Origin: Promethearchaeota archaeon
GTDB taxonomy: Archaea; Asgardarchaeota; Lokiarchaeia; Sigyniarchaeales; SOKP01
Assembly: GCA_030603385.1 (NCBI GenBank)
Contig: JAUVXW010000009.1
Coordinates: 32,001-96,000, forward strand
Direction: 5' to 3'
DNA: 64,000 bases
In this document: positions 22,576-61,579 of the stretch, piece by piece
Numbering within the stretch: the first letter of the stretch is position 1
Layout: each line of letters starts with the position of its first letter
Program-made: the position numbers and the translations under genes
Notes under the pieces: generated by a model
Seen by the model: the letters and a program-made list of their open reading frames with translations, nothing else
Told to the model about the DNA's origin: nothing
The model's database searches: none

Positions 22576-22988
22576 GATTTAAACCAATTTTGGCTAGTTA
22601 AAATGATGGATATACAAATAAATTTATAAATATTTTAAATTTTATAATAATTGGATAAATTAGATTACTCCCATTTTCAAATTTGTCTCTAAGTTTGTGT
22701 TCCCTTCGTTTTTGAAGGGTAACACTCTTTTTTTTCTAATTTTAAAATTTTTAGAGATTATAAGTTTAGATGAAAAAAACAGCGTTAAAAAACTATAAAC
22801 AGAACAATTGAAAAATTTAAAATATTAATAAATATTCGAGTTAATTTGTCAAAATCATGTGTTAATATATGTTAAATGGCGAAATATTGTATTAGCGTTA
22901 AATTCCATCAACTTACATCAATAAATTTAAATAAAAATTAAAATTTATTTATTTGGATTAAAAACTAATAAAATTTAGAGGTTTTAAT

Positions 22989-23222
22989 ATGCCTATTGAA
23001 GAATACACTTTAATTCGTGTTAGCAAGTCAAATAAAGAAAAATTAGATGATTATAAATTAACCAAAGGTGAATCATATAATTCTGTACTTGACGAGTTAA
23101 TCGAATTTGGAGAGGAAAATAATTTTAAAAGTATTAGAATTCAAAATTTATCTAAAAACTTGGAGATTAAAGAAAATGGGAGAAATAAAATTAAACAAAA
23201 GGCGAGTACTCAAATCGGATAA
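22989..23222 (+). CDS. Small RHH/antitoxin-like DNA-binding protein; paralogue of 56298..56522
   Basis: EYTLIRVSKSNKEKLDDYKLTKGESYNSVLDELIEFGEENNFK versus EYSSIQISKSNKVKLDDFKLAKRESYNYVLDDLIEFGEENDFK. Confidence 0.75.
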   Translation: MPIEEYTLIRVSKSNKEKLDDYKLTKGESYNSVLDELIEFGEENNFKSIRIQNLSKNLEIKENGRNKIKQKASTQIG

Positions 23223-23349
23223 TTTAGTAGATAAATTCAAGCTCTATTTTTATCAAACTCATTTTAATAGCCCTATATATAAATTTTTATGTTATAAATC
23301 GAATTTTAATTATAAAATATTAAAAAAAAAGTTAAATATGATAAGAATT

Positions 23350-31499: not shown

Positions 31500-32054
31500 A
31501 TGTTCTTGGATAGATTTAAAAAATTTCCTAAAAATAGAATCTTGTACCTTATAACAATAGCAGGTTTCTTGATCGTTCTATTAGTAGAAATATTCGTATT
31601 TATACCTATTGAAGCTACTGTCTCTGGGTATGGTATCTTGGATTATGAGTTTGCTTGGACTTCAAGCCGAGTCGAAATTATTTTTTCTGTGTGGGGTACT
31701 GATGGAATAGATAATCAACTAATGGCAATATATTGGGACTTCTTATTTATTGTTGGCTATGTTTCATTGGCTTTTGGTTTAATAATCATAGTATTACGGA
31801 GATCAAATAGCAAAATCGAGACTATTGGATCTTTTATGGCTATAACACCCTTTTTAACAGGAATTTTTGACGTAATTGAGAATGTATTTTTAATAACAAT
31901 GGCTAATACTCCGACTTCTGTTTCAAATCCTCAACCTTTAATAGCCTCTTTAAGCGCAACGCTGAAATTTGGTCTCTTATTTGCTGCAATAATATATTTC
32001 GTTATAGCCCTAATAACTATTTTAATCACCAAATTTAAAAAGAGAAATGAGTAA
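31500..32054 (+). CDS. Four-TM membrane protein
   Basis: Hydrophobic segments; DFLFIVGY and FDVIEN motifs. Confidence 0.75.
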   Translation: MFLDRFKKFPKNRILYLITIAGFLIVLLVEIFVFIPIEATVSGYGILDYEFAWTSSRVEIIFSVWGTDGIDNQLMAIYWDFLFIVGYVSLAFGLIIIVLRRSNSKIETIGSFMAITPFLTGIFDVIENVFLITMANTPTSVSNPQPLIASLSATLKFGLLFAAIIYFVIALITILITKFKKRNE

Positions 32055-37770: not shown

Positions 37771-38449
37771 TTTACATCATTTTTTGTTTATAGTTTTTAA
37801 ATTAATTTTAAATATAATTGTTTAGGTTAATTTATTTCCCACTCAATTAAAAAATTCTGCTTTTCTTTATCTTTGGAGTAAAATTGTTTATGGATAAATA
37901 TGAATTATTATTCATAACTAATTTTTTTTTAGGTTCAGTTAATTAGATGAATGAATTCTTTTGAATAATTATTCATTTTATTGTAAATTTTGTCTATAAA
38001 GGTATCATTTCTAGCAATTCTTACTTAGAAGAATTTAGCTAATTTGATAATTAAAGAAAAAGTTTTCTTTATCATTTAAACCATTGATAAATAGATACAG
38101 ATTTTGAATAATTATTAATTTTATATAATTGTTAGATTATATTCGCAACGTCAAAAATAACAAATCTAACTATTCCTAGAACTATTAATATATGTCCTAA
38201 GTGTAATAAAAAAAGTAAAATAACTCAAGATAAAAGTATGAACAAAGATGAAATAATTCAGTGGTTTTCTCTCTTCATCAATATAAATAAAGATAATTTC
38301 ACATTAGATTGGTTTAGAGGGCAAAAGTTAACATTTGAGAGTATTTATGAAATGAGAAAACAACCTTATTAATCAAAATTTATATAAAAGAAAGCAACCT
38401 AATTATTAATTACTTACAAATTATATTTTACAAATTTGGCGAAATTAAT

Positions 38450-40324: not shown

Positions 40325-41779
40325 ATGTTAGAATTGAGTGAAGAAAAAGTATACGATATTCGAAAGGTTTATGGAAAAGACAAGAAATCAGGAGAAGACT
40401 TTTATAACAAATGGCTTAGAGAATATCCAATCCTAAAAAACGAAGATGTACAAAAGTGGATTAGAAATAAGATAAATCAATTTACTGATGAGGGAAAAAA
40501 TCCGAAAGGTTTCAAAATAACGACATATTTAAGACCATTATATCAATATTGCCTGTTTAATAAAGTAGAAAACCCTACAGATTTATTAGATGAAGTAAAC
40601 ATGACTGTAGAAATAAACGGAAAAAAGGGAGATATAGAAAACGGAAATCTAAGATTAAAGACATATATTAATTTTCTTTTGGATGTAATAAAAGACAAAA
40701 ATAACAAACAGAAATTACAGAAATTAAAAGATCTAAAATTTAGGGTAATGAAAAATACTGGAAAAGTAAAGATACCAAACGAAGTTTCAGTTAGAAATAT
40801 GATACAAGGCAGAATTAGGAGTTTTTACTCATCCCGTGGATTTCAATTATCCGTAAAAATAAAAACAAAGGATTCTGGTAAAAATGTAAACGAAATAGAT
40901 GTAGACAAAGAAATGATAAAACGAATTAAAAACAACATCAATAATATTACATATAATTTGGTCTGTAAATTTCAAACTCAGACAGGATTAAGAATAAATG
41001 ATATATTGAAAGAGTTAACAAATGGTAAATATGTAATTGAAAATTATAAAGATGGAGATTTCGAACGTTACTTTATTAGAAATTTTGAAACACAGAAAGA
41101 AAAAGTGGTAATTAATTTTATGCCATTTACAAACGAATTAGCAGATATGTTGAGTCTTACATATCCTGAAATAAAAGATGATTTAACCAAATTGGATTTA
41201 TCAAATTTATTTATAACAAGAAACAATAAACGTATAAGGGAAGTTGATTACTTAGACAGATTAAAATTGGCAACTAAAAGGGCTGGAATAAAAGGAAATA
41301 TGAAGACACATTTGCTTAGAAAATATTATATAACACAGATAGAAGATGTTAAGGAAATAAGTAGTAAATTTAGAGACCATTTAGAAGGACATACCACAGA
41401 TTATTCAGATAAAACATATAATAAGAATATTAGACGTATCAAATGGTTTTTTGATAATTGGAAATTAATAGAAGAGAGTATTTGTGTAAACGGTGTTATA
41501 TATGGTAAAACAGATAAGAAAGTTATAAAATTGGATAAAAGATACAAAGATATAATGGAACAATTAGTTGAAACCAATAAAACAAATACAGAATTACAAA
41601 ATAAATTAAATAGTATGGAACATAAGGTAGAAGGATTTGACCAGTTATTTAGAATATTACTCGAAAAGCAAAGATATTCAGAGGAAATCGATGAAAAACA
41701 TGGAATTGAATCTACAAAGGTATACAAAGTTATGAAAAAGGTATTTGAAGAACATTTTGAAAAGTTAAGTAAAAAATAA
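40325..41779 (+). CDS. int: Tyrosine recombinase/integrase with C-terminal coiled coil
   Basis: QTGLRIND (R), TQKEK (K), THLLRKYY (HxxR), LEGH, DKTY (Y); GGAGGT precedes ATG 40325. Confidence 0.9.
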   Translation: MLELSEEKVYDIRKVYGKDKKSGEDFYNKWLREYPILKNEDVQKWIRNKINQFTDEGKNPKGFKITTYLRPLYQYCLFNKVENPTDLLDEVNMTVEINGKKGDIENGNLRLKTYINFLLDVIKDKNNKQKLQKLKDLKFRVMKNTGKVKIPNEVSVRNMIQGRIRSFYSSRGFQLSVKIKTKDSGKNVNEIDVDKEMIKRIKNNINNITYNLVCKFQTQTGLRINDILKELTNGKYVIENYKDGDFERYFIRNFETQKEKVVINFMPFTNELADMLSLTYPEIKDDLTKLDLSNLFITRNNKRIREVDYLDRLKLATKRAGIKGNMKTHLLRKYYITQIEDVKEISSKFRDHLEGHTTDYSDKTYNKNIRRIKWFFDNWKLIEESICVNGVIYGKTDKKVIKLDKRYKDIMEQLVETNKTNTELQNKLNSMEHKVEGFDQLFRILLEKQRYSEEIDEKHGIESTKVYKVMKKVFEEHFEKLSKK

Positions 41780-41822: not shown

Positions 41823-43040
41823 TTATTTCCCTCTCTTTTCTATTAATAAATCTAAAATATCTTCTATGGTCATATCTCCAAAAAATTCATCAATCTTTTT
41901 ATCCTTCAACGAATTTAATTTTTTCTTTGTATATTCAAGCTTTTCGTTTATAAGTTTACTCTCTCTTTTAATATACTTTTTGGAATTTTCCAAATTTTTT
42001 ATCGCATATTCTGATTCTTCCATCTCCTTCATATAAAAGAATATATAATCATTAAGACGTTCTAATAATAATAGTATTGTTTTTATTAAATATGGTTTAT
42101 CTTGTGTAATTAATTTCTCTAAAACATCTGTGTCTTTTTTCTCCCTACCTATAAATTTTCCACGTGTATATTCATCATATTGATAACCTAAAATAGCATC
42201 AACAACAATTTTATCCAAATTATTATTAATATTTCCAATATGAAAATCATCTTTTTTTCTATCCTTAGAAATTATTTCACTTATATATTTTAAAATATTA
42301 GTATTTTTATATTTTATCGAATGTTCTATCATATCATCTAAATAATGATTTCTCATATAATTATAAACTTCATTGGTTGGTTCTGTTCTTAAAATAGAAT
42401 TGATCATATCTCGATTTACATTAATTTTATTATCTGGATATTTTATATTATAATCATTAAAATAATCTATTAAATAATTTACAATAGGTTCAATATAATG
42501 TGGATGTCTATTAGGATCCTTTCTATAATACAAAGTTTTATACATAAATGCCTTTTCGGAAACTGGTAAATTTAATCCTCTTTTTTCATCCTCTTCTTTT
42601 TTCTCCCTTTTTTCATCCTCTCTCTTTTTTTTCTCTTCTTTTTTTATTTCTAATTTTACTTTTCTTTTTATACGTTCCTCATACCATTCCTTTTCTACAA
42701 TAGGAAGTCCAATCACTTCATTTACATTATTAATATCAATCATATTCATAGTTTTTATTAATTCCTCTTTTTCTATATCATTCATATGTTCTATTTCAGA
42801 TTCTCTTTTACGGAAATCAAAAGGCATTTCATGAGTCTCAAAATAAAGCAATTGTACAAACTTCCATTTATAATCACTTTTATGACTTTTAAGTCTACCT
42901 AAGATATGCTTTGTTTCTCCAGTGTAATATCTCCAATCATCATTTCTACTCAAACAATTTAATATATAAATAAAATGATATTTATGTTTATTAATTCCAC
43001 ATAAAAATTCCATTTCTTTTTTAAACTCATCAATCTTCAT
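41823..43040 (-). CDS. GIY-YIG nuclease domain protein with a long C-terminal extension
   Basis: FIYILNC...YYTGETKHILGRLKSH...LLYFE...KRESEI. Confidence 0.78.
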   Translation of the reverse strand: MKIDEFKKEMEFLCGINKHKYHFIYILNCLSRNDDWRYYTGETKHILGRLKSHKSDYKWKFVQLLYFETHEMPFDFRKRESEIEHMNDIEKEELIKTMNMIDINNVNEVIGLPIVEKEWYEERIKRKVKLEIKKEEKKKREDEKREKKEEDEKRGLNLPVSEKAFMYKTLYYRKDPNRHPHYIEPIVNYLIDYFNDYNIKYPDNKINVNRDMINSILRTEPTNEVYNYMRNHYLDDMIEHSIKYKNTNILKYISEIISKDRKKDDFHIGNINNNLDKIVVDAILGYQYDEYTRGKFIGREKKDTDVLEKLITQDKPYLIKTILLLLERLNDYIFFYMKEMEESEYAIKNLENSKKYIKRESKLINEKLEYTKKKLNSLKDKKIDEFFGDMTIEDILDLLIEKRGK

Positions 43041-43345
43041 TTAAATAACCTTAATAAGCCATTTTTCTAAATAAATTATAATGTTTATAAAATTTAATAA
43101 TTTTGAATAAACACCATATCTAACAACCAATAATCATTAGAAAAAGAATAATTAATTTTTTTTCTCTAAATATCAAATTAAATAATCTAAAAATCAATAC
43201 AATCATCATTTATAACTGAAAATTTGAATGAATCATCACACATCAATATTTTATATTGGAAATTTATAAATATTATAAAAACCAATGTTTTGACTCTTAA
43301 ATTTGATAAACGCCAAAACATTTTAAATAAAAGAAAAAAAATTAA

Positions 43346-44035
43346 TTATTGTTCTTTTCCGCACATTGGACAGAACATTTTTGTTTCGTCTAATATTTCA
43401 GTTCCACATTCTGGACAATATAACTTTTGTATTTTATAAATTTCTTTTTGCTTTTTTATGGTTTCTCTTATATTCCTTTTTTTATGTCTCTTTTTGAATA
43501 TATTTTTCCCTGTAATAATAATAACTACAGACATATATCCAAGACATCCTAAAAATATATAAATAGGTATAAAAGTAAGTAGAACCAAAAAATCCAACGA
43601 AGTCTCTTTATATGTAGAATAATATTCAAAAGATATATAGGAAGAAATTACATCAAAATTTATAACCAAAATAGTCCACGTATCGTAAAAAGGGAAATCC
43701 ATATTATACCATGCTTCTCCTCCAGATTCATCTGTAAAATGCCAATAATTAGTATATGAATTATAATCATAAACATCAAAGTCAAGCCCGTGTTGCCCAG
43801 AAGACAATAAAACAACATAAAAATCGAATGGTGGATCACAATAAAATTTAAAAAGAAAATGATCTCCATCTTGTCCTTTAACATAAAAAAGCCATCCTGT
43901 ATCTCTCTGCATTTCACGTTCAGTACGTCCTTCCCATGTTTCTACTTTTGGATAAAAAACAACTATTATCGCTGAAATAACTACTCCTATTAATAAAAAG
44001 GAAACCAAAAACAAAACAATTATATATTTCTTCAT
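43346..44035 (-). CDS. Two-TM membrane protein with extracellular beta domain and C-terminal zinc ribbon
   Basis: N-terminal TM, second TM, CPECG...FCPMCG; ATG 44035 follows the SD sequence. Confidence 0.78.
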   Translation of the reverse strand: MKKYIIVLFLVSFLLIGVVISAIIVVFYPKVETWEGRTEREMQRDTGWLFYVKGQDGDHFLFKFYCDPPFDFYVVLLSSGQHGLDFDVYDYNSYTNYWHFTDESGGEAWYNMDFPFYDTWTILVINFDVISSYISFEYYSTYKETSLDFLVLLTFIPIYIFLGCLGYMSVVIIITGKNIFKKRHKKRNIRETIKKQKEIYKIQKLYCPECGTEILDETKMFCPMCGKEQ

Positions 44036-44076
44036 TTTTTTTATCACCTCCTTCATTTGTTTAATTTGAAATAAAT

Positions 44077-44553
44077 TTATCCAATTATCATTTCTCCTGT
44101 ATATCTAAAATTAATTCCTTCAACAATCAATTCCTCCATATCTGGATATTCACTCTTCATTCCCATAATTACCTGTTTCCATGTTATTAATTTACATGTC
44201 ATACATTCTGTCTCACCATATATATCAACAAAATCTTCAAGATAATGCTTATTTTTGGGTTGAATCCATTTTTTTAATCCTGTTAGTATCCAGATATGAT
44301 CTTCTTTAAACAGACATTCATCATATATTGGCTGAATTCTATGTCTATCTGCAATTATTTGCTTTATATTGTGCTTCTTATTATGAGTTTTACACCATAC
44401 ATACCTCTCATCTTTCGTCCTTAGCTTGTTAATTTCAATCATCTTCTCAGAATGTTGTTCGTCTATTTCGTTAAATTTTTTTCTTAAAATTCTGCTCTGT
44501 TCCCTTAGTTTCATTATTTCTTCATATAATTCCATTATTTCTTCTTCACTCAT
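44077..44553 (-). CDS. Hypothetical protein (N-terminal coiled coil; CxxH and CxxC)
   Basis: ORF with SD GGAGGTG. Confidence 0.7.
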   Translation of the reverse strand: MSEEEIMELYEEIMKLREQSRILRKKFNEIDEQHSEKMIEINKLRTKDERYVWCKTHNKKHNIKQIIADRHRIQPIYDECLFKEDHIWILTGLKKWIQPKNKHYLEDFVDIYGETECMTCKLITWKQVIMGMKSEYPDMEELIVEGINFRYTGEMIIG

Positions 44554-44567
44554 TATTTAACACCTCC

Positions 44568-44882
44568 TTATTTTTTTAATGAATAATTTAACATATTAAA
44601 TACAGCCATATTTCTCCTCCTTATATTCATCAACCCGCCACTCTCATCTGTTTGGAATCTAAATTTTCTACCATCTTTTAGATTAATTAATGGTCTTTTA
44701 GCTGTTTTCGGAAATTTCTCAGAAATAGTAACAGAATTAATTTCTTCAAATTTAATCTCAGTTATATTTCCTCTATGAAACAAAAATACGATCTTATCGT
44801 CCTCAATCTTTAAAGTTCCCCAGTGTCGTCTTTTTGGTAATCGTGTTTCTCCTTCCAACATTAAAAATCCCTGATAACTCAT
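44568..44882 (-). CDS. PH-like domain protein
   Basis: WGTLKIEDDKIVF...EIKFEEINSVTI...LINLKDGRKFRF resembles bacterial PH/GRAM folds. Confidence 0.55.
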   Translation of the reverse strand: MSYQGFLMLEGETRLPKRRHWGTLKIEDDKIVFLFHRGNITEIKFEEINSVTISEKFPKTAKRPLINLKDGRKFRFQTDESGGLMNIRRRNMAVFNMLNYSLKK

Positions 44883-44901
44883 CTTTTCACCTCCTCATTT
44901 G

Positions 44902-45108
44902 TTATTTTTTTAATGATTTTAAATCTTTTATCTTTTCATAAATATCTTTGTCAAATTGTTTTAAAAATTCTGAACTACATTTTTCTTTTAAATATTTCAC
45001 TATTTCCCTGATAATCGTTAATGAATCACGATTCATTTGTATACTTGATTTAACGTTCTCCTGTATAGAATCAATTCGTTTTAATATATCATCTAATTTT
45101 TCACTCAT
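44902..45108 (-). CDS. Small hypothetical protein
   Basis: ORF following a junction repeat. Confidence 0.65.
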   Translation of the reverse strand: MSEKLDDILKRIDSIQENVKSSIQMNRDSLTIIREIVKYLKEKCSSEFLKQFDKDIYEKIKDLKSLKK

Positions 45109-45150
45109 CTTATTATCACCTCATCATTTGTTATTTGGAATAAATTTATA

Positions 45151-45354
45151 TCATGATAATGATTTTTGATCTAATAAAATTCGAGTTAAATGTAACCCAA
45201 GACCTGGATATGCCCCTCCCCATATTCCAGCATATTCTCCAATTATAGCAATAGTAAGGAAGGTTATGACAATAATAATAAATATAATTGTATATTCCAA
45301 TAACTTAATTCTTTTTTCCAAATATTTTATTCTATTATCAAAATCTTCTGTCAT
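45151..45354 (-). CDS. Small single-TM protein
   Basis: Short coiled coil plus hydrophobic segment; overlaps the upstream stop codon. Confidence 0.65.
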   Translation of the reverse strand: MTEDFDNRIKYLEKRIKLLEYTIIFIIIVITFLTIAIIGEYAGIWGGAYPGLGLHLTRILLDQKSLS

Positions 45355-45710
45355 GTTAGAACCTCCTGTTTTAATTTTTCCATATCTTTTATTGCTTCAT
45401 CTCTATATTCTATTACAATATCTTTTAATTCTGGCAATTCAAATAATTCTAATTTTAAAAATGTCACACGATTTTCATCATATATTTCTAAAAACATAAC
45501 CAATTCATTTTTTGGATGATAAGTCCATTCAAATCCACCGTATTTAATATTCCTTTTTTTTAATGCTTCGTTGGTTTTATTTATTAAATTAGAATATTTA
45601 TCCAATAGTTTACCTTTTAAAAAAATAGGTTCACTCCATTTTTCACCTGTATCTTTTTCTAATCGTTTTTGTCTTAGTTTTATCATTCTCTTATGATATT
45701 TTTCACTCAT
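45351..45710 (-). CDS. Hypothetical protein
   Basis: ORF following a junction repeat. Confidence 0.7.
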   Translation of the reverse strand: MSEKYHKRMIKLRQKRLEKDTGEKWSEPIFLKGKLLDKYSNLINKTNEALKKRNIKYGGFEWTYHPKNELVMFLEIYDENRVTFLKLELFELPELKDIVIEYRDEAIKDMEKLKQEVLT

Positions 45711-45752
45711 CTCTTTTCTACCCCTTCATTTGTGATTTGGAATAAATTTATT

Positions 45753-46484
45753 TTATATTAAAGCCTCAATATCATTTTCTTTATTTCCAATATCAATCCA
45801 ATAATCTATGGCTTGTTTAGCCTTTGGATTTGCTTCAAATCCAATGTATTTTCTATTTGTTATGATACAATTATAAGCAGTAGTTCCATTTCCCATAAAA
45901 GGGTCTAATACGATATCTCCTTCATTGCTTGAATTTTCAATTAAATCACGAACTAATCGATTTGGTAGTTTAGTACCAATTTTCGGTACATTAGCAGAAA
46001 TTCTAGGTCTACTCATAGTAAAAACATCTGGCATATTGAGTCTTAGTCTATTAAACTTGTATTTGTTTATGTCCCTAACCAAGAAATAGATATGATAATG
46101 AGCTGATGAGTATTTCTTTTTTGCTTTTGCTTGTGTAGTGCCACATACCCAAATACAATGGTTTAACCTAATCAAATCGAGTCTGTCTAATATTCTTTCT
46201 ACATTATTTAAATGATTCCAACCTAACACTATATACATTGAGCCAGAATGTTTTAACACTCTTTCTGCTTCTAACATCCATTTAAGTGTAAAATTATAAT
46301 AATGTTCTGGTTTAACTTCTACATATCCTTCCATTAAATTTTCAGAGTTTCTGACATAATTATATGCACCCTTATCAAACCAAATGCCAAACGGAGGATC
46401 TGCTATAATTAAATCAATTGAATTGTTACGTATTCTTTTCATGCCTGATATACAGTTTTCATAATAGATATGATTTAATTCCAT
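45753..46484 (-). CDS. Orphan amino-DNA methyltransferase (m6A/m4C, beta class)
   Basis: DLIIADPPF precedes VLDPFMGNGTT; KPxxL-like KLPNRLVRDLIENSSNEGD. Confidence 0.9.
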   Translation of the reverse strand: MELNHIYYENCISGMKRIRNNSIDLIIADPPFGIWFDKGAYNYVRNSENLMEGYVEVKPEHYYNFTLKWMLEAERVLKHSGSMYIVLGWNHLNNVERILDRLDLIRLNHCIWVCGTTQAKAKKKYSSAHYHIYFLVRDINKYKFNRLRLNMPDVFTMSRPRISANVPKIGTKLPNRLVRDLIENSSNEGDIVLDPFMGNGTTAYNCIITNRKYIGFEANPKAKQAIDYWIDIGNKENDIEALI

Positions 46485-46515
46485 TTAATCACCTGTTCTG
46501 TTTTTTGAAATAAAT

Positions 46516-46779
46516 TTATTTAATTATTCCTAAACGTATCTTGTTGGCTTTCCGTAAATACAATATTGGATAAATCATAAAAACAACAATAGTTAAAACT
46601 ATACCTATACACAAGCTAATCATTGCTTCGTATTGAAGGACATAATTACCCGTTGTATCTACATAATCAAGAGTTTGTATTGCATGTATCATAATATAAA
46701 GAATCACACAGCCAACTATTATTGAAATTGTGACCAATGTTCTTAATTTATCATATTTCATCATTTCCTCTTCACTCAT
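46516..46779 (-). CDS. Small two-TM protein
   Basis: Two hydrophobic segments; ATG 46779 follows GGAGGTGG. Confidence 0.7.
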   Translation of the reverse strand: MSEEEMMKYDKLRTLVTISIIVGCVILYIMIHAIQTLDYVDTTGNYVLQYEAMISLCIGIVLTIVVFMIYPILYLRKANKIRLGIIK

Positions 46780-46799
46780 CCTTATTACCACCTCCTATA

Positions 46800-47252
46800 T
46801 TATTTAATTTCGATTTTTAAATGTTTACATTCCTTCAACTTCCTTTTTAAGAAATTCAAGAATTTTTTATATGATTTTAAACCATATCTTTTTTTAATCC
46901 AGTTGGTCATTGCTATGAAAATCATATCTACATCTTCCAATGTCTCTTTTAAAATTTGATTATCTAACTCCTTTTCTGTCACTTCTGTAAATCCTAATTC
47001 CTCCAATTTTTCTATTGACGGATCATCTAAAAATTTCTGCTTTAATTTTTCTTGTTTATTTTCTTGTTTATTTTCTTGTTCATGTTCCCACATTTTAAAA
47101 GCATGAGTTATCTCGTTATTTTTATTTAACGCAGTCCTATTTGTTTCATGATAATATTGTTCAAATAATATTTCTTGTCTTTTTGTATATCTTTGTCTAC
47201 TACCTTGAGAATAATACCATTTCTTTATTCTCCTCCAAAATTCATTACTCAT
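46800..47252 (-). CDS. Hypothetical protein carrying the recurrent ETGK module
   Basis: YYHETNRTALNKNNEITHAFKMW. Confidence 0.7.
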   Translation of the reverse strand: MSNEFWRRIKKWYYSQGSRQRYTKRQEILFEQYYHETNRTALNKNNEITHAFKMWEHEQENKQENKQEKLKQKFLDDPSIEKLEELGFTEVTEKELDNQILKETLEDVDMIFIAMTNWIKKRYGLKSYKKFLNFLKRKLKECKHLKIEIK

Positions 47253-47258
47253 TTTATA

Positions 47259-47990
47259 TCACGTCCTGTTTTGTTTAATTTTCTTTTGATATTGTAACCA
47301 TTGTTTAAATTGTACAGTGATTTTATTACCCCAAATAACATGTTGACCTGTCTCGGCTTCAAATCTTTTTATTAATTTTGGATATTTATTTTGAAACTCA
47401 TTTACACTCATTTTTATTCCTTTTTGTTTCTTTAAATTTTGCGGATTTAAAAGAACATGAAACATAAAATTCAATTTATTTTTTTCCCCGTCCTTTTCAT
47501 CTTCTTTATCATATTCATAAGTTTCATAAACTCCATATATCCTTCCGTACAATTTACATAAGGAAATAAATTTATCAAAGTTCTGTCTAATATGAATAAT
47601 TTTTTCGAGATTATTAGTGGCATAATCAATAATTTGAATGTAATTCTTAAACTCTTTATGTAGCTTTAATTTTAATAAAATTTCAATGAACTTTGCTTTA
47701 TATTTAAAAGTGAATTTATTATATTTGTCACGTTTACTCTCAATACATTCAGCAAAATTATACCATAAATTATTATCAAGATATTTTATAAAACCTCCAC
47801 CAAGTTTTAATGCACCTCTCATCGAAATAAGCACATATTTACCATCCTCTGTATCTGGTGTTTCTGGTAAAGGTATATTGCTTTTAATGAATTCTTCAGC
47901 AGTAAGCTCTATATAATCTTTCTCATTCCCCTTTTCAAACATTTTTCTTACCATTTCTTTTAATCTCCTTCTTTTTATTAGGAATTCCAT
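47259..47990 (-). CDS. Hypothetical protein with C-terminal ETGK module
   Basis: FEAETGQHVIWGNKITVQFKQW. Confidence 0.7.
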   Translation of the reverse strand: MEFLIKRRRLKEMVRKMFEKGNEKDYIELTAEEFIKSNIPLPETPDTEDGKYVLISMRGALKLGGGFIKYLDNNLWYNFAECIESKRDKYNKFTFKYKAKFIEILLKLKLHKEFKNYIQIIDYATNNLEKIIHIRQNFDKFISLCKLYGRIYGVYETYEYDKEDEKDGEKNKLNFMFHVLLNPQNLKKQKGIKMSVNEFQNKYPKLIKRFEAETGQHVIWGNKITVQFKQWLQYQKKIKQNRT

Positions 47991-48450
47991 AACGAAATTT
48001 ATCTGTATGTTTAATATATGTGAGTCTCTTTTCGATGAGTTTTATGATGGATTTTGTGCTTTCATCATCAACGTGTTCTCTAATAAATTGATAATACTCA
48101 TCCCAAGTTTCCAATTTGTGATATTTCATAAATCTCGCAATATCTAATAAAGGTAAATCTGTACCTCTTCCTTTTTCAAACAAATAAAAAATACAGAAAA
48201 TATTGTTTTTCCAACCATAATCAACCTCTTCTATGCCTAAATCTTTAAAAACTCTCTTTATGAACGGCACCAAATTAATAATTTCTTTCTCATATCTCAG
48301 AACTTTATGTGCTGGCTTTTTCACAAATTTCGTTAAAAAATCCAAATAACCTGTATATGTATAACAACGTACAACTCCACATCTTAAATATCCTTCATCT
48401 ACTTTTCCTTTTTCTAAGACATTCTTATATTTATTGCTCAATTTTTTCAA
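47935..48450 (-). CDS. Hypothetical protein
   Basis: 171-aa ORF in the co-oriented array. Confidence 0.65.
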   Translation of the reverse strand: MKKLSNKYKNVLEKGKVDEGYLRCGVVRCYTYTGYLDFLTKFVKKPAHKVLRYEKEIINLVPFIKRVFKDLGIEEVDYGWKNNIFCIFYLFEKGRGTDLPLLDIARFMKYHKLETWDEYYQFIREHVDDESTKSIIKLIEKRLTYIKHTDKFRYGIPNKKKEIKRNGKKNV

Positions 48451-48462
48451 CTCTTTTTTTTA

Positions 48463-49158
48463 TTACTTCGCATAACCTTTATGCTCTTTATATACATTCC
48501 CTCTATAATGTGTTCTCTTACACCACGAGCAGTAATAAGGTTGAGTCATAGGTGGCGGTGGTCTATTAGTCCTTTCAATATTATCTACCCATTCATTTAA
48601 GTTATGGATTTCATCATTACTAAGTAATCCTTTTTCTATTTTTTCATTCAATATACCTCGAAAAAGATATGTTTGTTTTTGTATTTGTTCGTATGATAAT
48701 TCTTTACAACCTAAATTTGCTGAAACAAAAATACCCATAGCTTCACTATCAGAGAGTTCCATTATTTTACAACTAATTTTTTCACGACCTAACTTTTTCG
48801 TGGCAGTAAACCTTCGATACCCCTCCACAAGAGAATATTTTTCACTATTATTAATTGGTCTAATAATAACAGGAGTTATCAAACCTACATCAAGTATAGA
48901 CATTAATAAAGCTCCATCATTTTCGTCATTAGACCATCTATCTCGAAATGAGATAGAATCATCAATTTTAATATTCTTAATGTCAATCTCTTTTATATTC
49001 CATTTCATTTGTTTTATCTCTTTTTGCTTATATCTCCATTGTTTAAATTGTCCAGATAGCTTACCACCTATAATGGCATTTTTGCCTGTCTCTTTTTTAA
49101 ACAATAAAGTCGATTTATATATTTTTGGATATTTATTTTTGAATACTTCTGTGTTCAT
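48463..49158 (-). CDS. ParB/Srx-like domain protein with N-terminal ETGK module and C-terminal CxxC-H-H motif
   Basis: LLMSILDVGLITPVIIR...YSLVEGYRRFTATKKLG...SAN. Confidence 0.85.
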   Translation of the reverse strand: MNTEVFKNKYPKIYKSTLLFKKETGKNAIIGGKLSGQFKQWRYKQKEIKQMKWNIKEIDIKNIKIDDSISFRDRWSNDENDGALLMSILDVGLITPVIIRPINNSEKYSLVEGYRRFTATKKLGREKISCKIMELSDSEAMGIFVSANLGCKELSYEQIQKQTYLFRGILNEKIEKGLLSNDEIHNLNEWVDNIERTNRPPPPMTQPYYCSWCKRTHYRGNVYKEHKGYAK

Positions 49159-49319
49159 TATCTAACCTCCTTGTTATTTGAAATAAATTTTTTAATTGAT
49201 AATTTCTTTAAAAATTCATACTCGTCATAAGGGCTATGTGGTACATAATATAGAGAGTCATAATTCAGGAGCTTATGAGTTTCAGCATCTACAGGTAGTT
49301 TTTTAATTTCCTTACTCAT
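49158..49319 (-). CDS. 53-aa ORF, below the ORF-track size cut-off
   Basis: MSKEIKKLPVDAETHKLLNYD...NNKEVR*; start overlaps the end of the upstream gene and the stop overlaps the ParB ATG (TAATG). Confidence 0.55.
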   Translation of the reverse strand: MSKEIKKLPVDAETHKLLNYDSLYYVPHSPYDEYEFLKKLSIKKFISNNKEVR

Positions 49320-49629
49320 CTTTTTTAACCTCCTTGATAAGTTCTGATAATTTATGTTGACATTTTTTAAACTCCCATTGTATCATATTATATACTTCCT
49401 CTGCTGTATCCAATTCTCGAACTAATTCACCAATTTCACCGATAATTGACATTTTTTTACTGACTTTAATTATAGCAGGTGAAAACATTCCTTGCTCTTT
49501 TTTTACCTTCTCCACATGTTTAATTATATTATCCAATGAGTTTCTTATCTGGCTCATATTCCTAAAATTCAACATATGTCTCAATTTTTTCAAATTATCC
49601 AATAAATTTTCTGTAAAGGGTTCTGGCAT
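49312..49629 (-). CDS. Hypothetical helical protein
   Basis: ORF abutting the stop codon of the TOPRIM gene. Confidence 0.7.
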   Translation of the reverse strand: MPEPFTENLLDNLKKLRHMLNFRNMSQIRNSLDNIIKHVEKVKKEQGMFSPAIIKVSKKMSIIGEIGELVRELDTAEEVYNMIQWEFKKCQHKLSELIKEVKKDE

Positions 49630-51636
49630 TTACTCATCCTCCAATTCAAATTCAATTTCATCATCTATTTCCTCATCTTCAATTTCCTCTAATTCCTCTT
49701 CTTCAAGTTCAATATCTTCAATTTCCTCATCACCCAATTCTTCGAAATCAATTGGTTCCTCAAGTATTTCAATAAGTTCGTCTTGTAATTCTGTCATAAA
49801 ATTATCAAAATTAGTTTCAATAAAACTTTCTCTTCTCTCTATAAATTCCTCTTTAAGTTCATTATATTCTGGAATTTGCTTAATAATTCTTTTACATATA
49901 ACCTTTTGCTTTCTTACCAGTTTTCTAAGTCCCTCAGTTTGTTCATTTGATAATATACGCAATTGTCTATTCTGCTTTTCAATAATACTCCAAGGATCTT
50001 TAACAATATTATCACCCTTATATCCCTTATTTTTCCTTAGAATTTTTTTGAAAATATCATATTTACCCTTTGTATATATTAGATTTTGGAGCTCCTCATT
50101 AGTCTCACGCATTTTATTAACTCTATCTCTTATAAGCTCATACCAATCTGTCGTAAATCGCACGTTCCTCTCATCTAAATACTCATTAAATTCTCTATAT
50201 GCTTCTTCTCCAATTTCTCCCTGTTTTTCAGTTATTTTATCTGATAATTCCCTCAATTTATTATTGACAATATTTATTCTTCTCTCTATTTCCTTGTCTA
50301 TATTATCTATAAATTCTGGTCTTGAAACATTGAGAGTATTTAATGTTGGCTCATAATAATCTGGTTTTTCATATCTACTCAAGTTCCATGGTCTTTCTGG
50401 ATCTTCTAAAATTCCAATTAAATAATCAATAAAATCTCTGGCTTTATTTTGCTCATAATCTTCTTCTTCTCTTTTTGTTAACAAACTGTTTATCTCTGCC
50501 CGCCTCTCTAAACAGGAATTAATCCAATTATTATATTTTTCTCTTTCATCTTCAGTTATATCAAACTCTAAAACCTTATTTCTTACCTTTTCTTTCTGTT
50601 TTTCTTTCTGTGTTTCTGTAACATCATAATCTTCGGCTATTTCATCAAACTCCACCCCAATATGCTCTAAAAAGTCAGGATTTATCCCTACACTTTCACA
50701 GGGAAATCTTTCCCTAATGTTGAAATAAATCATAAGTCCGTCTATATCTAAATCATGTTGAACAAATACATAAAAATTTCTAACTTTTGAAAATGGTATT
50801 AAATATTTAATTACTGCACTTACAGGATAACCACCTAAAGAAATACCATAAAATCCCTCGTTATATCCCCTATTAATTAGTTCTCGCATTGTAAAATCAA
50901 TAAGTATCGTTTTTTCACAGATAATTAAGAAAAAAGGTACATTTTCAAATTCCTCCAATCTCTCCAATTCAATCAGATTTTTCTTTGTTAAAATAATTTC
51001 TACCATATTCATATCAAATATATTCGCAGTACCCTTAATATCAACTCCGAGATAATCTGGAACATAACCCCAATACTCAAAACCTAAAAATTCAAAGAGT
51101 TTATTATAATATTTATCTACTGCTTGACCAATAGCTTTTTGTTGCTCTTCTTTAGTGCCTTTTAAATTTAATTTACCACCAAAACTTTTCCTGACCTTAT
51201 AGAATACCTCCCGTTTATCTGTTTTTTGGAGGTTCAAATCTAATTGCTTAAAAATCCATCTCTTATTTAATATCTTAACTACTTCTTTTTTTTCTTTAAT
51301 TCTTGGAAATTCTTTGACTAAATACACTATATCTTTATATTTTGTTTTTGGTATTTGTTTCCTATAATAATCATCCAATTTTTCAACAACATGTTCTCTA
51401 ACATTTGTCCTCCATATAGGTATATGAATAGCACGACAAATATGATGATATTTTGGTTTTCTCATTAACCAAACTTCAAAATCCCCCAGATGTACTCCAT
51501 TATCTTTAAATGCCTGTTTACCTGTTTCGGCATAATATTCCTTTATCGATTCGTCTCCATACTTTTCTATAAATTCATTATAAAGCATTCGAACAACAGG
51601 CGAGTGAAATTTTTTTATTAAATCTTCTCGATTCAA
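49630..51636 (-). CDS. Spo11/Topoisomerase VI-A-like TOPRIM protein with N-terminal ETGK module, coiled coil and acidic tail
   Basis: KREVFY (5Y-CAP-like Tyr), IICEK, LGGYP, HDLDIDGLMIY (DxD), SVGI, RAEINSL. Confidence 0.78.
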   Translation of the reverse strand: MNREDLIKKFHSPVVRMLYNEFIEKYGDESIKEYYAETGKQAFKDNGVHLGDFEVWLMRKPKYHHICRAIHIPIWRTNVREHVVEKLDDYYRKQIPKTKYKDIVYLVKEFPRIKEKKEVVKILNKRWIFKQLDLNLQKTDKREVFYKVRKSFGGKLNLKGTKEEQQKAIGQAVDKYYNKLFEFLGFEYWGYVPDYLGVDIKGTANIFDMNMVEIILTKKNLIELERLEEFENVPFFLIICEKTILIDFTMRELINRGYNEGFYGISLGGYPVSAVIKYLIPFSKVRNFYVFVQHDLDIDGLMIYFNIRERFPCESVGINPDFLEHIGVEFDEIAEDYDVTETQKEKQKEKVRNKVLEFDITEDEREKYNNWINSCLERRAEINSLLTKREEEDYEQNKARDFIDYLIGILEDPERPWNLSRYEKPDYYEPTLNTLNVSRPEFIDNIDKEIERRINIVNNKLRELSDKITEKQGEIGEEAYREFNEYLDERNVRFTTDWYELIRDRVNKMRETNEELQNLIYTKGKYDIFKKILRKNKGYKGDNIVKDPWSIIEKQNRQLRILSNEQTEGLRKLVRKQKVICKRIIKQIPEYNELKEEFIERRESFIETNFDNFMTELQDELIEILEEPIDFEELGDEEIEDIELEEEELEEIEDEEIDDEIEFELEDE

Positions 51637-52130
51637 TCATCTTCATCTCCTATTCCCCTATCTTTACCACCAAAAATATATGGCGAGTATAATTCCTCTA
51701 AATCCTGATAACTTAAATCTTTTAAAGAATTATTACCTTTCCATCGATTTTTCCAAAATATTTCTAATTCGTCAAGTGTATTAAATTCAGCACCTTCTAA
51801 ATAATCTGGATTTTGTCTTACCCAATGAAACATATATATTGGAATTAGTTCTGGATATTCCTTAACAAGTTTTAAATATTTTATAAAAAATTGGTTTGTT
51901 TTTTTCTCAGTTAATCCAAGAATTTTTATCATGGATTTTACATTATACGATGAATCAGGTTTATGATTATCCGATATATCTTTAAACAATGGTTCTAATT
52001 CCTTTTTTAACCAATTTAAATTATTAGCATCTTCTCCTTCCAAATTACAGAATTCAATAGCCCATTCAAATTCTTTATATTTTTTCATACATTTTAAAAT
52101 TATTTCCTTAAACATCAAATGTTCACTCAT
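51633..52130 (-). CDS. Hypothetical protein
   Basis: 165-aa ORF with SD GGAGG. Confidence 0.7.
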   Translation of the reverse strand: MSEHLMFKEIILKCMKKYKEFEWAIEFCNLEGEDANNLNWLKKELEPLFKDISDNHKPDSSYNVKSMIKILGLTEKKTNQFFIKYLKLVKEYPELIPIYMFHWVRQNPDYLEGAEFNTLDELEIFWKNRWKGNNSLKDLSYQDLEELYSPYIFGGKDRGIGDEDD

Positions 52131-52279
52131 TATTCTCTGACCTCCTCGTTTTTTACTTTAATATCAAGATAATTTCTAACAAGTTCAGCAACCAGCTTTT
52201 TTATGGATTTGTTTTCTTTTGAGGCTCTTGTTTTCAATAGAATGTGAAGTTCGTCATCTATAATAATTTGTTTAACCAT
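52130..52279 (-). CDS. Ribbon-helix-helix (CopG-like) regulator, 49 aa, absent from the ORF track
   Basis: MVKQIIIDDELHILLKTRASKENKSIKKLVAELVRNYLDIKVKNEEVRE*; first gene of the operon, TAATG overlap with the next gene. Confidence 0.8.
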   Translation of the reverse strand: MVKQIIIDDELHILLKTRASKENKSIKKLVAELVRNYLDIKVKNEEVRE

Positions 52280-52289
52280 AATATAATCT

Positions 52290-53583
52290 CTCTTTCATTT
52301 TTTTCGATTTATCGATTAATCTATTAATTAAAATAAATATTGGATTATTTATAAATCTATTTTTCACATACAAACGATATATCCTGTTTGATAATAACAT
52401 TAGCAATAATTAGATTCATGAGTTGAATAATTAGACAGATGTGATATTTTGAGTTTCTGGGAATTTTAGATATTTGACTTGTAGTATGGTTTAAACTCAA
52501 TTATAATACATGAAATTGTGTTTTGAATATTCCAAACATGTTTTAAATCTTTCTACTCTATAAATATGGCATAATTGGAATATCGAAAATTTTTCGATCT
52601 TATATTTTTATATTTTATTAGTTTGATGACATCTATATATCCAATTAATCTACAACTCCAATTTGATATATAGCATTTAATAGATTAAAAAAAATCCAAT
52701 GTACACCAATTCTATTGGTGTATTAATATATACTATAATTGAAAATTAGAGTGTATGTATATGTACCTTGGAATATTTAAGTTTAAAAATTTTTTTGAAA
52801 AAAATTTAATTTTTTTACAAAAAATAGATAAATATTGAAAAATTTTTAATGTTCTCTTAAATTGTTTAAAAGATATTATAGAGATTGAATGATTTTCCGT
52901 TATATATTAGATATAATATAAAATCTTTAAAATAAATAAATAATTATATCATTTTTTTCAAATAATAGGAATTTTTTACTTTATAATAATTATTATTTTA
53001 TTGGATTGTTTAATATATAAAGTTAAAGTATAATGATTATGGTTTCTGGCTATTTGTTTGATGTACTTATTATTTTCAATACTAATTTCTAAAACTTGGG
53101 TAATTTTAGTATTAAAAAAATCCAAAAATAACACGAAATTAGTTAATTATAATTAAAATCATAATTATCTTTGATTTAAATTAGATTAAATCCAATAAAT
53201 TTAATAGAAATAGAATGAAATTAAGTTATTTTTAAAGATAATTGATTTTGAATAGTGGAAATGATAGAATCATTAGAAAATTTATTTTGATTATAACAGG
53301 AGATATAATGTATAAATTTTTTATTAGATGATTTATTCTGAATACGATTAGAAAGTTTCTACTCAATATAGATATGTTTTATATTTAAATCAATCGTGAT
53401 TTTTTTTAAAATTCTGCTTCTAAATACCAAATTCAGAGTTTAATTTTTTCTCCATAATGAGAAATGAAGAAATATTCAAATATTCTATATATAGGAAAAA
53501 AAAAAAAATAAAAAAAAATAATAAAAAAAAATAAAATATATATAATATAATATTGAGTTTTTTCTAATTATCTCATTATGAAT
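52290..53583. other. AT-rich non-coding region; candidate replication origin of the element
   Basis: 1.3 kb without ORFs, immediately downstream of the SF3 helicase. Inverted repeat CATAATGAGA (53453) / TCTCATTATG (53571) flanks an A-tract; palindrome TACACCAAT-TCT-ATTGGTGTA at 52702-52722. Confidence 0.5.
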
Positions 53584-55919: not shown

Positions 55920-56344
55920 CTTTTATAACCTTTTATTAAACTCCCTACATTTTCTTTTTCTATCAATAATTTATTTAATTCTTCTTTGGTGTCGCACGGT
56001 TTAACAATAATATAATGTGCTTTACAATGTAGACATCTGATATATATAAAAATTACTAATACCTGATTACAAACTTCAATATCATCTATAATTACGTTTT
56101 TATTACATGTTCCACAGATGTTATTATCCAACAATTGTTTTACATGTAAATCTATATCTTCTTTGGTTATAACTAATTTGAATTTAGTTATAATATTACA
56201 GTGTAAACATCCTTCTGAAACTATAACATCATAATCTTTTAGATTATATTCCGTTTGTTTAATTAAAGGATTTTTACATATACTACAAATATTCGATTCA
56301 AGAATTCTCCTTTTGCTTGATTTTAATTTTTCTGTCACTTTCAT
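55916..56344 (-). CDS. Tandem zinc-ribbon protein
   Basis: Two repeats of NICxxC...CLHC. Confidence 0.75.
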   Translation of the reverse strand: MKVTEKLKSSKRRILESNICSICKNPLIKQTEYNLKDYDVIVSEGCLHCNIITKFKLVITKEDIDLHVKQLLDNNICGTCNKNVIIDDIEVCNQVLVIFIYIRCLHCKAHYIIVKPCDTKEELNKLLIEKENVGSLIKGYKR

Positions 56345-56522
56345 CTTCCAAGTTTTTAGTTAGATTTTTAATTCTAATTCTTTTAAAATCATTTTCTTCC
56401 CCAAACTCAATTAAATCATCAAGCACATAATTATATGACTCTCTTTTAGCTAATTTAAAATCATCTAATTTTACCTTGTTTGACTTACTTATTTGTATTG
56501 AAGAATATTCATCGACAACCAT
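56298..56522 (-). CDS. Small RHH/antitoxin-like regulator heading the replication operon
   Basis: SSIQISKSNKVKLDDFK...ESYNYVLDDLI; paralogue at 22989. Confidence 0.75.
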   Translation of the reverse strand: MVVDEYSSIQISKSNKVKLDDFKLAKRESYNYVLDDLIEFGEENDFKRIRIKNLTKNLEDESDRKIKIKQKENS

Positions 56523-57040
56523 AATTTAATCATCCAATTTTATCATAACTTATAATTAATTATTATAATTTATTATTATTTATAAATATTATTGAGTAAA
56601 TCGATGTAATACATAGATTCAACATAAAACATACATAAGCACATGATTTGGATAAATCTAACAAAAGTTAAAAAATAGTTAAAAAATTGTAAATGTCGTT
56701 AAAACATATATGAGATGTTATTTTTATACATTAGATGAAAAATGAACAAAGACAAAAATATTCGAAAAATTGAAAAGACCCCTGTGGAAGGCAGGGGCAA
56801 TAAATAGAGGTTTAAGATTTTGACAGAAAAATTAAACTCTAATTATTATAAAATTTATAACATTTATAAATTTATTTGAATGTAATCATTCTAAACCTAT
56901 CATTGGGTTTTAGTTTTATCCAATTTGTAAAATTGACTTAAATATTCACTTATTTGTTATTAGAAGTTATATAATAGAAAAATTATAATTGGATTAAAAA
57001 TTTATTTTAATTAATTGGATAACCAAATAGAGTAATTAGA

Positions 57041-61027: not shown

Positions 61028-61306
61028 TTTTCTAATCCAATATTCAAAAAATAAATTTTCCATCGATCCTTTGGAGCAAATATAGGGTTATTTCTAAATT
61101 TAAATGAATTTTCTAATTGAAAATTTATTTTATTGTAAATATATTTGATGATTTTTAATTTTCTGTTTGTAAATCAACTCAAAATGCACATGAACACAAT
61201 AAATTTATATATGAACATTGTAATCTATTTATTAATTAAAAATTTATTTAAAATGATTAAGAATATTTATCGAGAATCGATTGTAAATAAGGAGGTATAG
61301 AGTAAA

Positions 61307-61579
61307 ATGGAAGAAATAGATTATACATTGGTGGCAGAAGTTTCTAAAGCTTTTGCTGGAATAATTAATAAGAAAGTTATGGTTTCAAAAACATCTGAAG
61401 CTATAAAATATCTAAGAACCATCAAACAAGCAATTGTAAAAGGATGTAAAAGATCTGATTTCTTTTCTACATTTGGGCAAATTCTAAATTTAGTCCAATC
61501 TACAGTAGAAACGTGGTTAGATTGTTTACAACCAAGATATGTTGGGACATATAAGGGAACATGGAGTCCTTATAATTAA
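61307..61579 (+). CDS. Hypothetical protein
   Basis: Strong SD AAGGAGGT. Confidence 0.7.
   Translation: MEEIDYTLVAEVSKAFAGIINKKVMVSKTSEAIKYLRTIKQAIVKGCKRSDFFSTFGQILNLVQSTVETWLDCLQPRYVGTYKGTWSPYN

Follow-up and report, generated by a model that had tools for sequence, protein, structure and literature searches.

A repeated TATA-like and Shine-Dalgarno module before genes of an integrated element in a Promethearchaeota genome

Introduction

What is the role of a short sequence that recurs, always in the direction of the following gene, between otherwise unrelated genes of an archaeal element? The question is raised by contig JAUVXW010000009.1 of a Promethearchaeota archaeon (Asgardarchaeota; assembly GCA_030603385.1), of which positions 32,001 to 96,000 were analyzed. 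These 64,000 nucleotides (nt) are called the window; all coordinates refer to it, and features beyond its end are given as window-equivalents. The window holds most of a ~39.9-kb insertion, here called the element, and within it a co-directional array of minus-strand genes whose junctions carry the repeat. A first-pass annotation, made from the DNA letters alone, had proposed a standardized module of a TATA-like stretch and a Shine-Dalgarno (SD) site that would both express the cargo and offer recombination sites for gene shuffling in an integron-like system. Our results fit the expression half of this interpretation: the repeat is most likely a set of ordinary promoters. The integron or shuffling half is not supported.

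Very little is known about how genes are switched on in Asgard archaea and their mobile elements, and we found no promoter study of Asgard archaea in the literature. A compact, repeated and element-specific combination of promoter and SD site offers a testable candidate for a strong expression signal of Asgard archaea; with its help, recognition by TBP and TFB could be defined in vitro, and it might later become a component of genetic tools. We consider its interest moderate, and owed mainly to the Asgard host.

The junction repeat is specific to the element

All six junction strings quoted in the first-pass annotation were located on the minus strand. Between genes of the element the repeat measures 15-35 bases, and the six copies are arranged as follows.

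44,044-44,080, minus strand: junction j1; ATAAATTTATTTC core, spacer and GGAGGTGA before the ATG at 44,035; the stop codon of the upstream gene (44,077-44,079) lies within the core
44,887-44,904, minus strand: junction j2; 3' half only (TAACAAATGAGGAGGTGA), with the TATA-like part eroded; begins at the stop codon; ATG at 44,882
45,116-45,149, minus strand: junction j3; full core and GAGGTGA; ATG at 45,108; upstream stop codon 1-2 nt before the motif
45,717-45,751, minus strand: junction j4; full core and a weak SD (GGGGTAGA); ATG at 45,710; upstream stop codon 1-2 nt before the motif
46,489-46,519, minus strand: junction j5; precedes the methyltransferase gene, with ATG at 46,484; upstream stop codon within the core
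49,161-49,191, minus strand: junction j6; precedes the ParB-like gene, with ATG at 49,158; the TATA-like 8-mer ends 21 nt before the ATG

As the annotation had noted, the copies begin at or close to the previous stop codon, apart from j6, which lies inside an open reading frame (ORF), and in every copy an SD-like run is followed by an ATG. The parts come in a fixed order: upstream stop codon, core, a variable ACAAA-rich spacer, SD, 5-8 nt and ATG. At the full-motif junctions between genes (j1, j3, j4 and j5) the motif fills an intergenic space of 31-42 nt, and the junctions without a core are tighter, with gene overlaps or gaps of 6-21 nt. An independent repeat search recovered one family with five copies (33 nt) and another with three (64 nt). 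By repeat search j2 and j3 are 86% identical over 29 nt, and j3 resembles j4 over 54-64 nt, extending 13 nt into the coding regions of unrelated genes.

The 14-mer AAATTTATTYCAAA occurs in five exact minus-strand copies between 44,065 and 49,190. With 12 exact copies in the whole genome, ~0.009 would be expected in 5.2 kb (Poisson P ~6e-13). When one mismatch was allowed, the window contained nine matches against 2.3 expected, a number reached in none of 100 shuffles. The 17-mer ATAAATTTATTYCAAAT, again at up to one mismatch, gave 17 matches in the genome, six of them within the insertion, and its reversed control gave six and none, respectively. The complete module, in which the core is followed by SD and ATG, was found five times at up to one mismatch, every time in the element (5/5); at up to two mismatches five of the six cases in the whole genome were in the element. 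Since all SD- and ATG-followed matches of the 17-mer at one mismatch fall in the element, the module is not a genome-wide promoter or SD consensus. That explanation, which the annotation had named as one that would undo its proposal, was rejected on the full module and on the clustering of 5/12 exact 14-mers within 5.1 kb. No cluster of the motif was found elsewhere among 135 genomes of the family, where a 15-mer gave singletons only. The junctions matched no Rfam family, and a paralogous element within the same genome was considered and rejected. The repeat is thus real and specific to the element.

Promoter-like features of the repeat

Related copies were also found before plus-strand genes of the insertion.

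61,240-61,253, plus strand: related copy with one mismatch, oriented with the gene at 61,307-61,579 (plus strand)
69,581 (window-equivalent), plus strand: related copy before the RmuC-like gene
~72,208 (window-equivalent), plus strand: related copy before a further gene

Eight aligned copies, taken from both strands, all share the orientation of the next gene, whose ATG is at most ~45 nt away. They carry ATAAA and TTTATTYC, that is, a TATA-like 8-mer with an upstream stretch resembling a TFB-recognition element (BRE). The end of the 8-mer lies 21-32 nt before the ATG, a spacing that fits leaderless or short-leader starts; at j5 the distance is 22 nt, a leaderless geometry. The conserved core of 15-17 bp has the size of a BRE plus a TATA box and is sharply conserved, and the SD-proximal part varies (GGAGGTGA, GAGGTGA, GGGGTAGA, AGGTGA, GGAGGT).

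The 5' half of the core, ATAAATTTAT, is also the TATA region of a host tRNA-Arg promoter and is near-identical to that of tRNA-Cys, the matches being ATAAATTTAT(AT) at tRNA-Arg and ATAAATTTA(G) at tRNA-Cys. Relative to the mature 5' end of the tRNA, ATAAATTTATAT stops 25 nt short at tRNA-Arg and ATAAATTTAG 21 nt short at tRNA-Cys. In a set of 1,401 host genes preceded by non-coding DNA, starts of the hexamer TTTA[AT]A peak at -32 to -28 from the ATG, which suggests that some of the host mRNAs are leaderless. The TTTATT of the element starts at -29 and -30 (ParB-like and methyltransferase genes), at -35 and -36 (RmuC-like gene, j3 and j4) and at -40 (j1).

The RmuC-like gene offers a direct comparison with host DNA. 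Its copy in the element (L014:5571-6562; window-equivalent 69,571-70,562) shares 89% protein identity with a chromosomal copy beside leuA/leuCD (L172:9748-10725; C24:22747-23724). DNA homology of the pair starts 50 nt upstream of the ATG, and the upstream regions can be aligned; in the copy of the element, 10 additional bases turn the host-type upstream region into the complete ATAAATTTATTTTAAAT motif. On this alignment the motif looks as if it had been installed on an acquired gene, which would point to selection on expression rather than recombination at the motif.

Translation signals of the array are likewise distinct from those of the host. SD-like 5-mers at -20 to -4 precede 10% of host genes, 32% of element genes and 64% of array genes (43,000-52,300); a review describes SD sequences as rare in Lokiarchaea (PMC12993045). 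Genes starting with ATGAGT make up 5% of host genes and 50% of array genes. The annotation had pointed to a longer common start, ATGAGTGAA, and this was borne out, as it opens 5 of ~17 array genes (~29%) against 0.9% of host genes (binomial P ~3e-7). The genes at 44,077-44,553 and 46,516-46,779 are otherwise unrelated, yet their first ~40 nt (44,514-44,553 and 46,740-46,779) are 75% identical and encode MSEEEIME... and MSEEEMMK..., respectively. The standardized part of the module spans the TATA box through the first codons.

Proposed mode of expression

Along the array no T-runs of 5 or more were found at the motif-carrying junctions. The first candidate for an end signal lies behind the last gene.

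43,334-43,341, minus strand: T8 run, 5 nt past the last stop codon of the array

This run is likely the sole oligo-T terminator of the co-directional array; long T-runs also occur after the primase gene. Because internal terminators are absent before the T8 run, the array is probably transcribed both as a read-through RNA and from internal promoters.

From the layout of these signals we infer promoter activity, transcription start sites, a dual mode of translation and a possible regulator. The repeat is probably a series of element-specific BRE/TATA promoters, internal to a co-directional array and accompanied by strong SD sites. The core ATAAATTTATTYCAAAT would serve as the standard promoter of the element, read by TBP, TFB and RNA polymerase of the host, and the bases past the TATA box (TTYCAAAT) may bind a regulator encoded by the element. 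The purine-rich SD site and the start codon come after the core. Five such putative promoters would lie inside the one array, which is predicted to be free of terminators until 43,334-43,341. Polymerases entering from upstream would read through it into a long RNA, on which the SD sites would serve translation; the internal promoters, if they follow the host geometry, should initiate 0-10 nt ahead of the ATG, so that their mRNAs would be leaderless or nearly so.

Three points weigh against this proposal. The host gene starts used in these comparisons are crude ORF-based calls. Host promoters are nearly without conserved bases around the TATA hexamer, and TBP and TFB alone therefore do not explain the conserved block TTYCAAAT downstream, which host promoters do not share; this block may be an operator for one of the helix-turn-helix (HTH) or zinc-finger proteins of the element. 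Finally, as the predicted start falls at or after the SD, promoter and SD cannot serve the same transcript. Placing them on different transcripts requires read-through as an extra assumption, and in this respect an action at the RNA level is favoured.

Alternative explanations

Such an RNA-level signal would be an AU-rich, unstructured landing, re-initiation or processing region joined to an SD site in a long polycistronic mRNA, and taken as a whole we regard it as rather unlikely. The start-associated sequences (SAS) of Cluster K mycobacteriophages have the same anatomy and are absent from the host genome (PMC3203893). The alternative agrees further with an upstream stop codon that falls inside or beside the core in four of five full copies, with the ATG following within 31-42 nt, with the absence of terminators between genes, with junction RNA and DNA that are unstructured, with an SD use far above the host level, and with the promoter geometry that would exclude the SD from locally started transcripts. 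However, the best-conserved part lies 15-25 nt upstream of the SD instead of being the SD itself, and the core matches host tRNA promoter sequences, which act at the DNA level. To our knowledge, AU-rich translation enhancers have not been established in archaea. If the repeats were instead non-transcriptional binding sites for a protein of the element, either centromere-like sites for the ParB-like protein or iterons, the same-orientation direct repeats near a ParB-domain gene would fit, as would the 10-bp palindrome ATAAATTTAT in the core. Against this stand the irregular spacing (602-2,673 bp), the tie of each copy to a start codon, the copies on the other strand that follow gene orientation, and a ParB-like protein whose sole Pfam match was to the ParB N-terminal domain; we find this explanation very improbable. 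The same holds for the idea that the repeats are functionless remains of a single 5' gene end that was duplicated locally several times. The common ATGAGTGAA starts and the similarity of j3 and j4 could be read in that way, but conservation ends sharply at the intergenic core and the flanks are unrelated, 14/14 bases are kept in five copies in a region of 27% GC where neutral drift would blur sequences, and an acquired host gene gained the motif.

A role as recombination hot-spots or cassette junctions, where homology between copies would allow genes to be gained, lost or reordered, may coexist with promoter function, but we judge it quite unlikely. Apart from the missing stem-loop, the repeat has the anatomy of the promoter-early stem-loop (PeSL) cassettes of T4-type phages, with upstream stop codon, promoter, SD and start (PMC2839356). 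Weak hints come from the similarity of j3 and j4, which spans 54-64 nt and takes in 13 coding bases at the start of unrelated genes, from the two other unrelated genes that are 75% alike over a 40-nt 5' end, from a ~50-aa (amino acid) module common to the C-terminus of the gene at 47,259 and the N-terminus of the ParB-like protein, and from relatives of three proteins on contigs of different sizes. The copies, however, measure only 15-35 bp and are 73-86% identical outside the core, a short stretch for exchange by homology, and single copies also precede plus-strand genes far from the array. Junction j6 overlaps the last 13 codons of a 53-codon ORF (49,158-49,319), which is normal for a promoter and awkward for a cassette boundary.

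Two marks of an integron, attC sites and an IntI-type integrase, were missing. Folded as single-stranded DNA (ssDNA), 66-nt segments of five junctions (coding strand) and of j1, j3 and j4 (opposite strand) gave no structure; their minimum free energies ranged from -0.7 to -3.8 kcal/mol, and the z-scores relative to shuffles lay between -0.1 and +1.3. An attC-like site (an imperfect inverted repeat of 57-141 bp) was rejected, the sole symmetry being the 10-bp AT palindrome. An IntI-type integrase was rejected as well: the recombinase resembles XerA weakly, and no other recombinase model reached E 0.01 with it. Likeness of the junctions to the direct repeats flanking the element was rejected, as matches appeared only at four mismatches, a level common in the genome.

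Comparison with known systems

Archaeal core promoters consist of BRE and TATA box, with transcription starting ~22-27 nt past the latter, and virus-specific consensus forms exist, as in the rudiviruses SIRV1/2, where the TATA box is followed by GTC. The junction repeat shares the TATA-like 8-mer after an A-rich BRE-like stretch, as well as conserved downstream bases before many genes of one element. It differs in the strong SD alongside the predicted promoter, an unusual combination where SD sites are reportedly rare, as in Lokiarchaea (PMC12993045).

PeSL regulatory cassettes (Arbiol et al. 2010, PMC2839356; Comeau et al. 2014, PMC4122927) are close in layout: both are repeated intergenic cassettes in AT-rich DNA that run from the upstream stop codon through a host-type promoter, predicted in the present case, to SD and start codon, and both occur mainly in front of small ORFan genes in a part of the genome outside the core. 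The predicted promoter is of archaeal TATA type here, against sigma-70 type in PeSL, and the junctions have no stem-loop terminator (no structure and no T5+ run). PeSL function is defined by recombination between copies and by mini-circles. An Asgard counterpart of PeSL would combine TATA promoter, SD and first codons (ATGAGTGAA) in a portable unit that is copied before new genes, also provides homology for gene gain, loss or swap, and imposes SD-led translation where SD sites are rare. We consider this unlikely; it is suggested by the captured host RmuC-like gene, to which the motif seems to have been added. If it is true that close relatives swap genes at the repeat, the shuffling of regulatory cassettes, so far known from bacterial phages, would extend to archaeal elements.

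The SAS and extended SAS (ESAS) of Cluster K mycobacteriophages, whose function is unknown (Pope et al. 2011, PMC3203893), are likewise element-specific repeats upstream of starts, in one orientation and sometimes holding the upstream stop codon. They are located in the non-structural half of the phage genome and are absent or nearly absent from the host, comparable to the 5/5 modules in the element. An SAS, however, is 13 bp long, contains the core of the SD and is found 3-7 bp from the start, whereas the core studied here is TATA-like, lies 21-32 nt from the ATG and is followed by a variable SD.

With integron arrays (IntI, attI, attC) the array shares one-directional, unrelated small genes separated by repeats, 1.5 kb from a tyrosine recombinase gene. 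It differs in having neither an attC-like imperfect palindrome nor an ssDNA fold, in a recombinase that is not IntI-like, and in that each junction has its own promoter-like signal.

Searches for related arrays

Neither the 154 genomes of the order nor IMG/VR or JGI contigs yielded a related array. When the array DNA was compared with the genomes of the family, only noise and methyltransferase fragments were obtained. A 668-aa neighbour protein had two distant matches in the 135 family genomes (35-42% identity), which share that gene only, and its relative P0002 was not found in genomes of the order. The ParB-like protein had no close match in the family genomes, and its relative P0011 had no match in IMG/VR. 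An alignment of nine homologues gave no match in IMG/VR, and in GTDB contigs only the distant match already known. Searches with the motif pattern in JGI metagenomes (38 contigs) and with a broader one in IMG/VR returned a single match per contig; the loci so obtained showed no protein homology except two distant methyltransferase matches (25% identity). A search of a phage collection yielded distant primases only. The nearest database relatives are P0002 for the 668-aa protein (67% identity; contig of 37,989 bp in Logan/ENA), P0011 for the ParB-like protein (60% identity; 12,073 bp, JGI/ENA), and P0014 and P0013 for the methyltransferase (78% identity; 16,038 and 1,037 bp, Logan), and these differing contigs hint at a mosaic gene content.

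The insertion and its genomic setting

The source assembly comprises 3.89 Mb with 30.8% GC, and archaeal marker genes and a tRNA-Sec were detected in it. Two congeneric genomes (G047 and G036) carry an empty site, in which the left flank (to ~37,917) directly abuts the right flank (from window-equivalent ~77,850); the joined flanks identify the ~39.9 kb between them as an insertion in the source genome, of which it makes up ~1%. The main features of the insertion outside the array are the following.

37,916-38,068, plus strand: direct repeat of ~155 bp, left copy; 85-90% identity between the copies, with a 40-bp exact core
77,619-77,781 (window-equivalent; L014:13619-13781), outside the window: direct repeat, right copy; the two copies bound the insertion
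40,325-41,779, plus strand: divergent tyrosine recombinase ('integrase'); PF00589 at 25.7 bits, below the cut-off, and XerA-like at 30.9 bits against a cut-off of 220

Besides this recombinase and the array, the insertion encodes a weakly GIY-YIG-like protein, a D5-type primase-helicase, the RmuC-like gene, and coiled-coil, zinc-finger and leucine-rich repeat (LRR) proteins. No virion genes were recognised among the insertion proteins scanned, and the insertion may be either a provirus or an integrated plasmid. Host paralogues exist for genes at the edges, namely NosD-like at the left and winged HTH and LRR at the right, and the truly mobile core may therefore be narrower than the insertion, at roughly 40.3-73.5 kb.

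The insertion site lies upstream of a NiFe-hydrogenase operon. A 16S rRNA gene was found neither in the source genome nor in a one-contig congener, and ARAGORN detected just 13 tRNAs in the source genome, for which intron-containing tRNAs and unassembled rRNA are the probable reason.

Array genes and minor observations

The cargo described in the first-pass annotation (membrane proteins, a PH-like protein, a methyltransferase and ParB) was recovered by family and structure searches, with transmembrane (TM)-like segments in three small array proteins. The genes are, by coordinate:

43,346-44,035, minus strand: last array gene, 229 aa; N-terminal TM-like segment and C-terminal zinc ribbon
44,077-44,553, minus strand: 158-aa protein of unknown function; ATGAGTGAA start; SD present, no TATA-like core
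44,568-44,882, minus strand: 104-aa protein with a PH-like fold (structure model with a predicted local distance difference test (pLDDT) of 70.7; Foldseek)
44,902-45,108, minus strand: 68-aa protein; no family match
45,151-45,354, minus strand: 67-aa protein; one TM-like segment; no family match
45,351-45,710, minus strand: 119-aa protein; no family match; overlaps the 67-aa gene
45,753-46,484, minus strand: N6/N4 DNA methyltransferase; PF01555, E 1.6e-32
46,516-47,954, minus strand: three genes without a core at their junctions, of 87 aa (two TM-like segments), 150 aa and 231 aa
47,935-48,441, minus strand: 168-aa protein; TTG start; no family match
48,463-49,158, minus strand: ParB N-terminal-domain protein, 231 aa; PF02195, E 7.9e-12

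For the model of the 104-aa protein the top Foldseek matches (E <= 0.001) were mostly PH, GRAM or GLUE domains, with TM-scores of 0.53-0.67, and the protein also had a weak match to the CheF-arch family of Pfam. The methyltransferase appears to be an orphan, as no restriction partner was identified among the genes scanned. The ~50-aa module mentioned above links the C-terminus of the 231-aa protein from the coreless group (47,259-47,412) to the N-terminus of the ParB-like protein (49,010-49,158), with 49-50% identity; in the former it begins at an internal ATGAGT after a weak SD-like stretch, like a fused mini-gene.

Several non-coding features of the element were observed in addition. A 25-nt inverted repeat (43,141-43,165 and 43,332-43,356), 92% complementary, with its arms 166 nt apart and carrying T8/A8 runs, flanks the small region that separates the array from the GIY-YIG-like gene, and could be a two-way terminator. 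Between 52,280 and 53,583 there are 1.3 kb of non-coding DNA, located in a 2-kb bin at 21.5% GC and with T9-T13 runs right after the primase gene; this stretch could serve the element as a terminator region or replication origin. Upstream of the replication operon there is a region (56,278-56,894) with a second, partial copy at 22,598-23,232 (73-86% DNA identity), at a distance of 34 kb and in host DNA beyond the insertion. The 14-mer ATTTTATTGTAAAT, which belongs to the exact core of the flanking direct repeat, recurs in the element at 61,127-61,140, within a non-coding block and adjoining the motif-like AAAATTTATTTTA.

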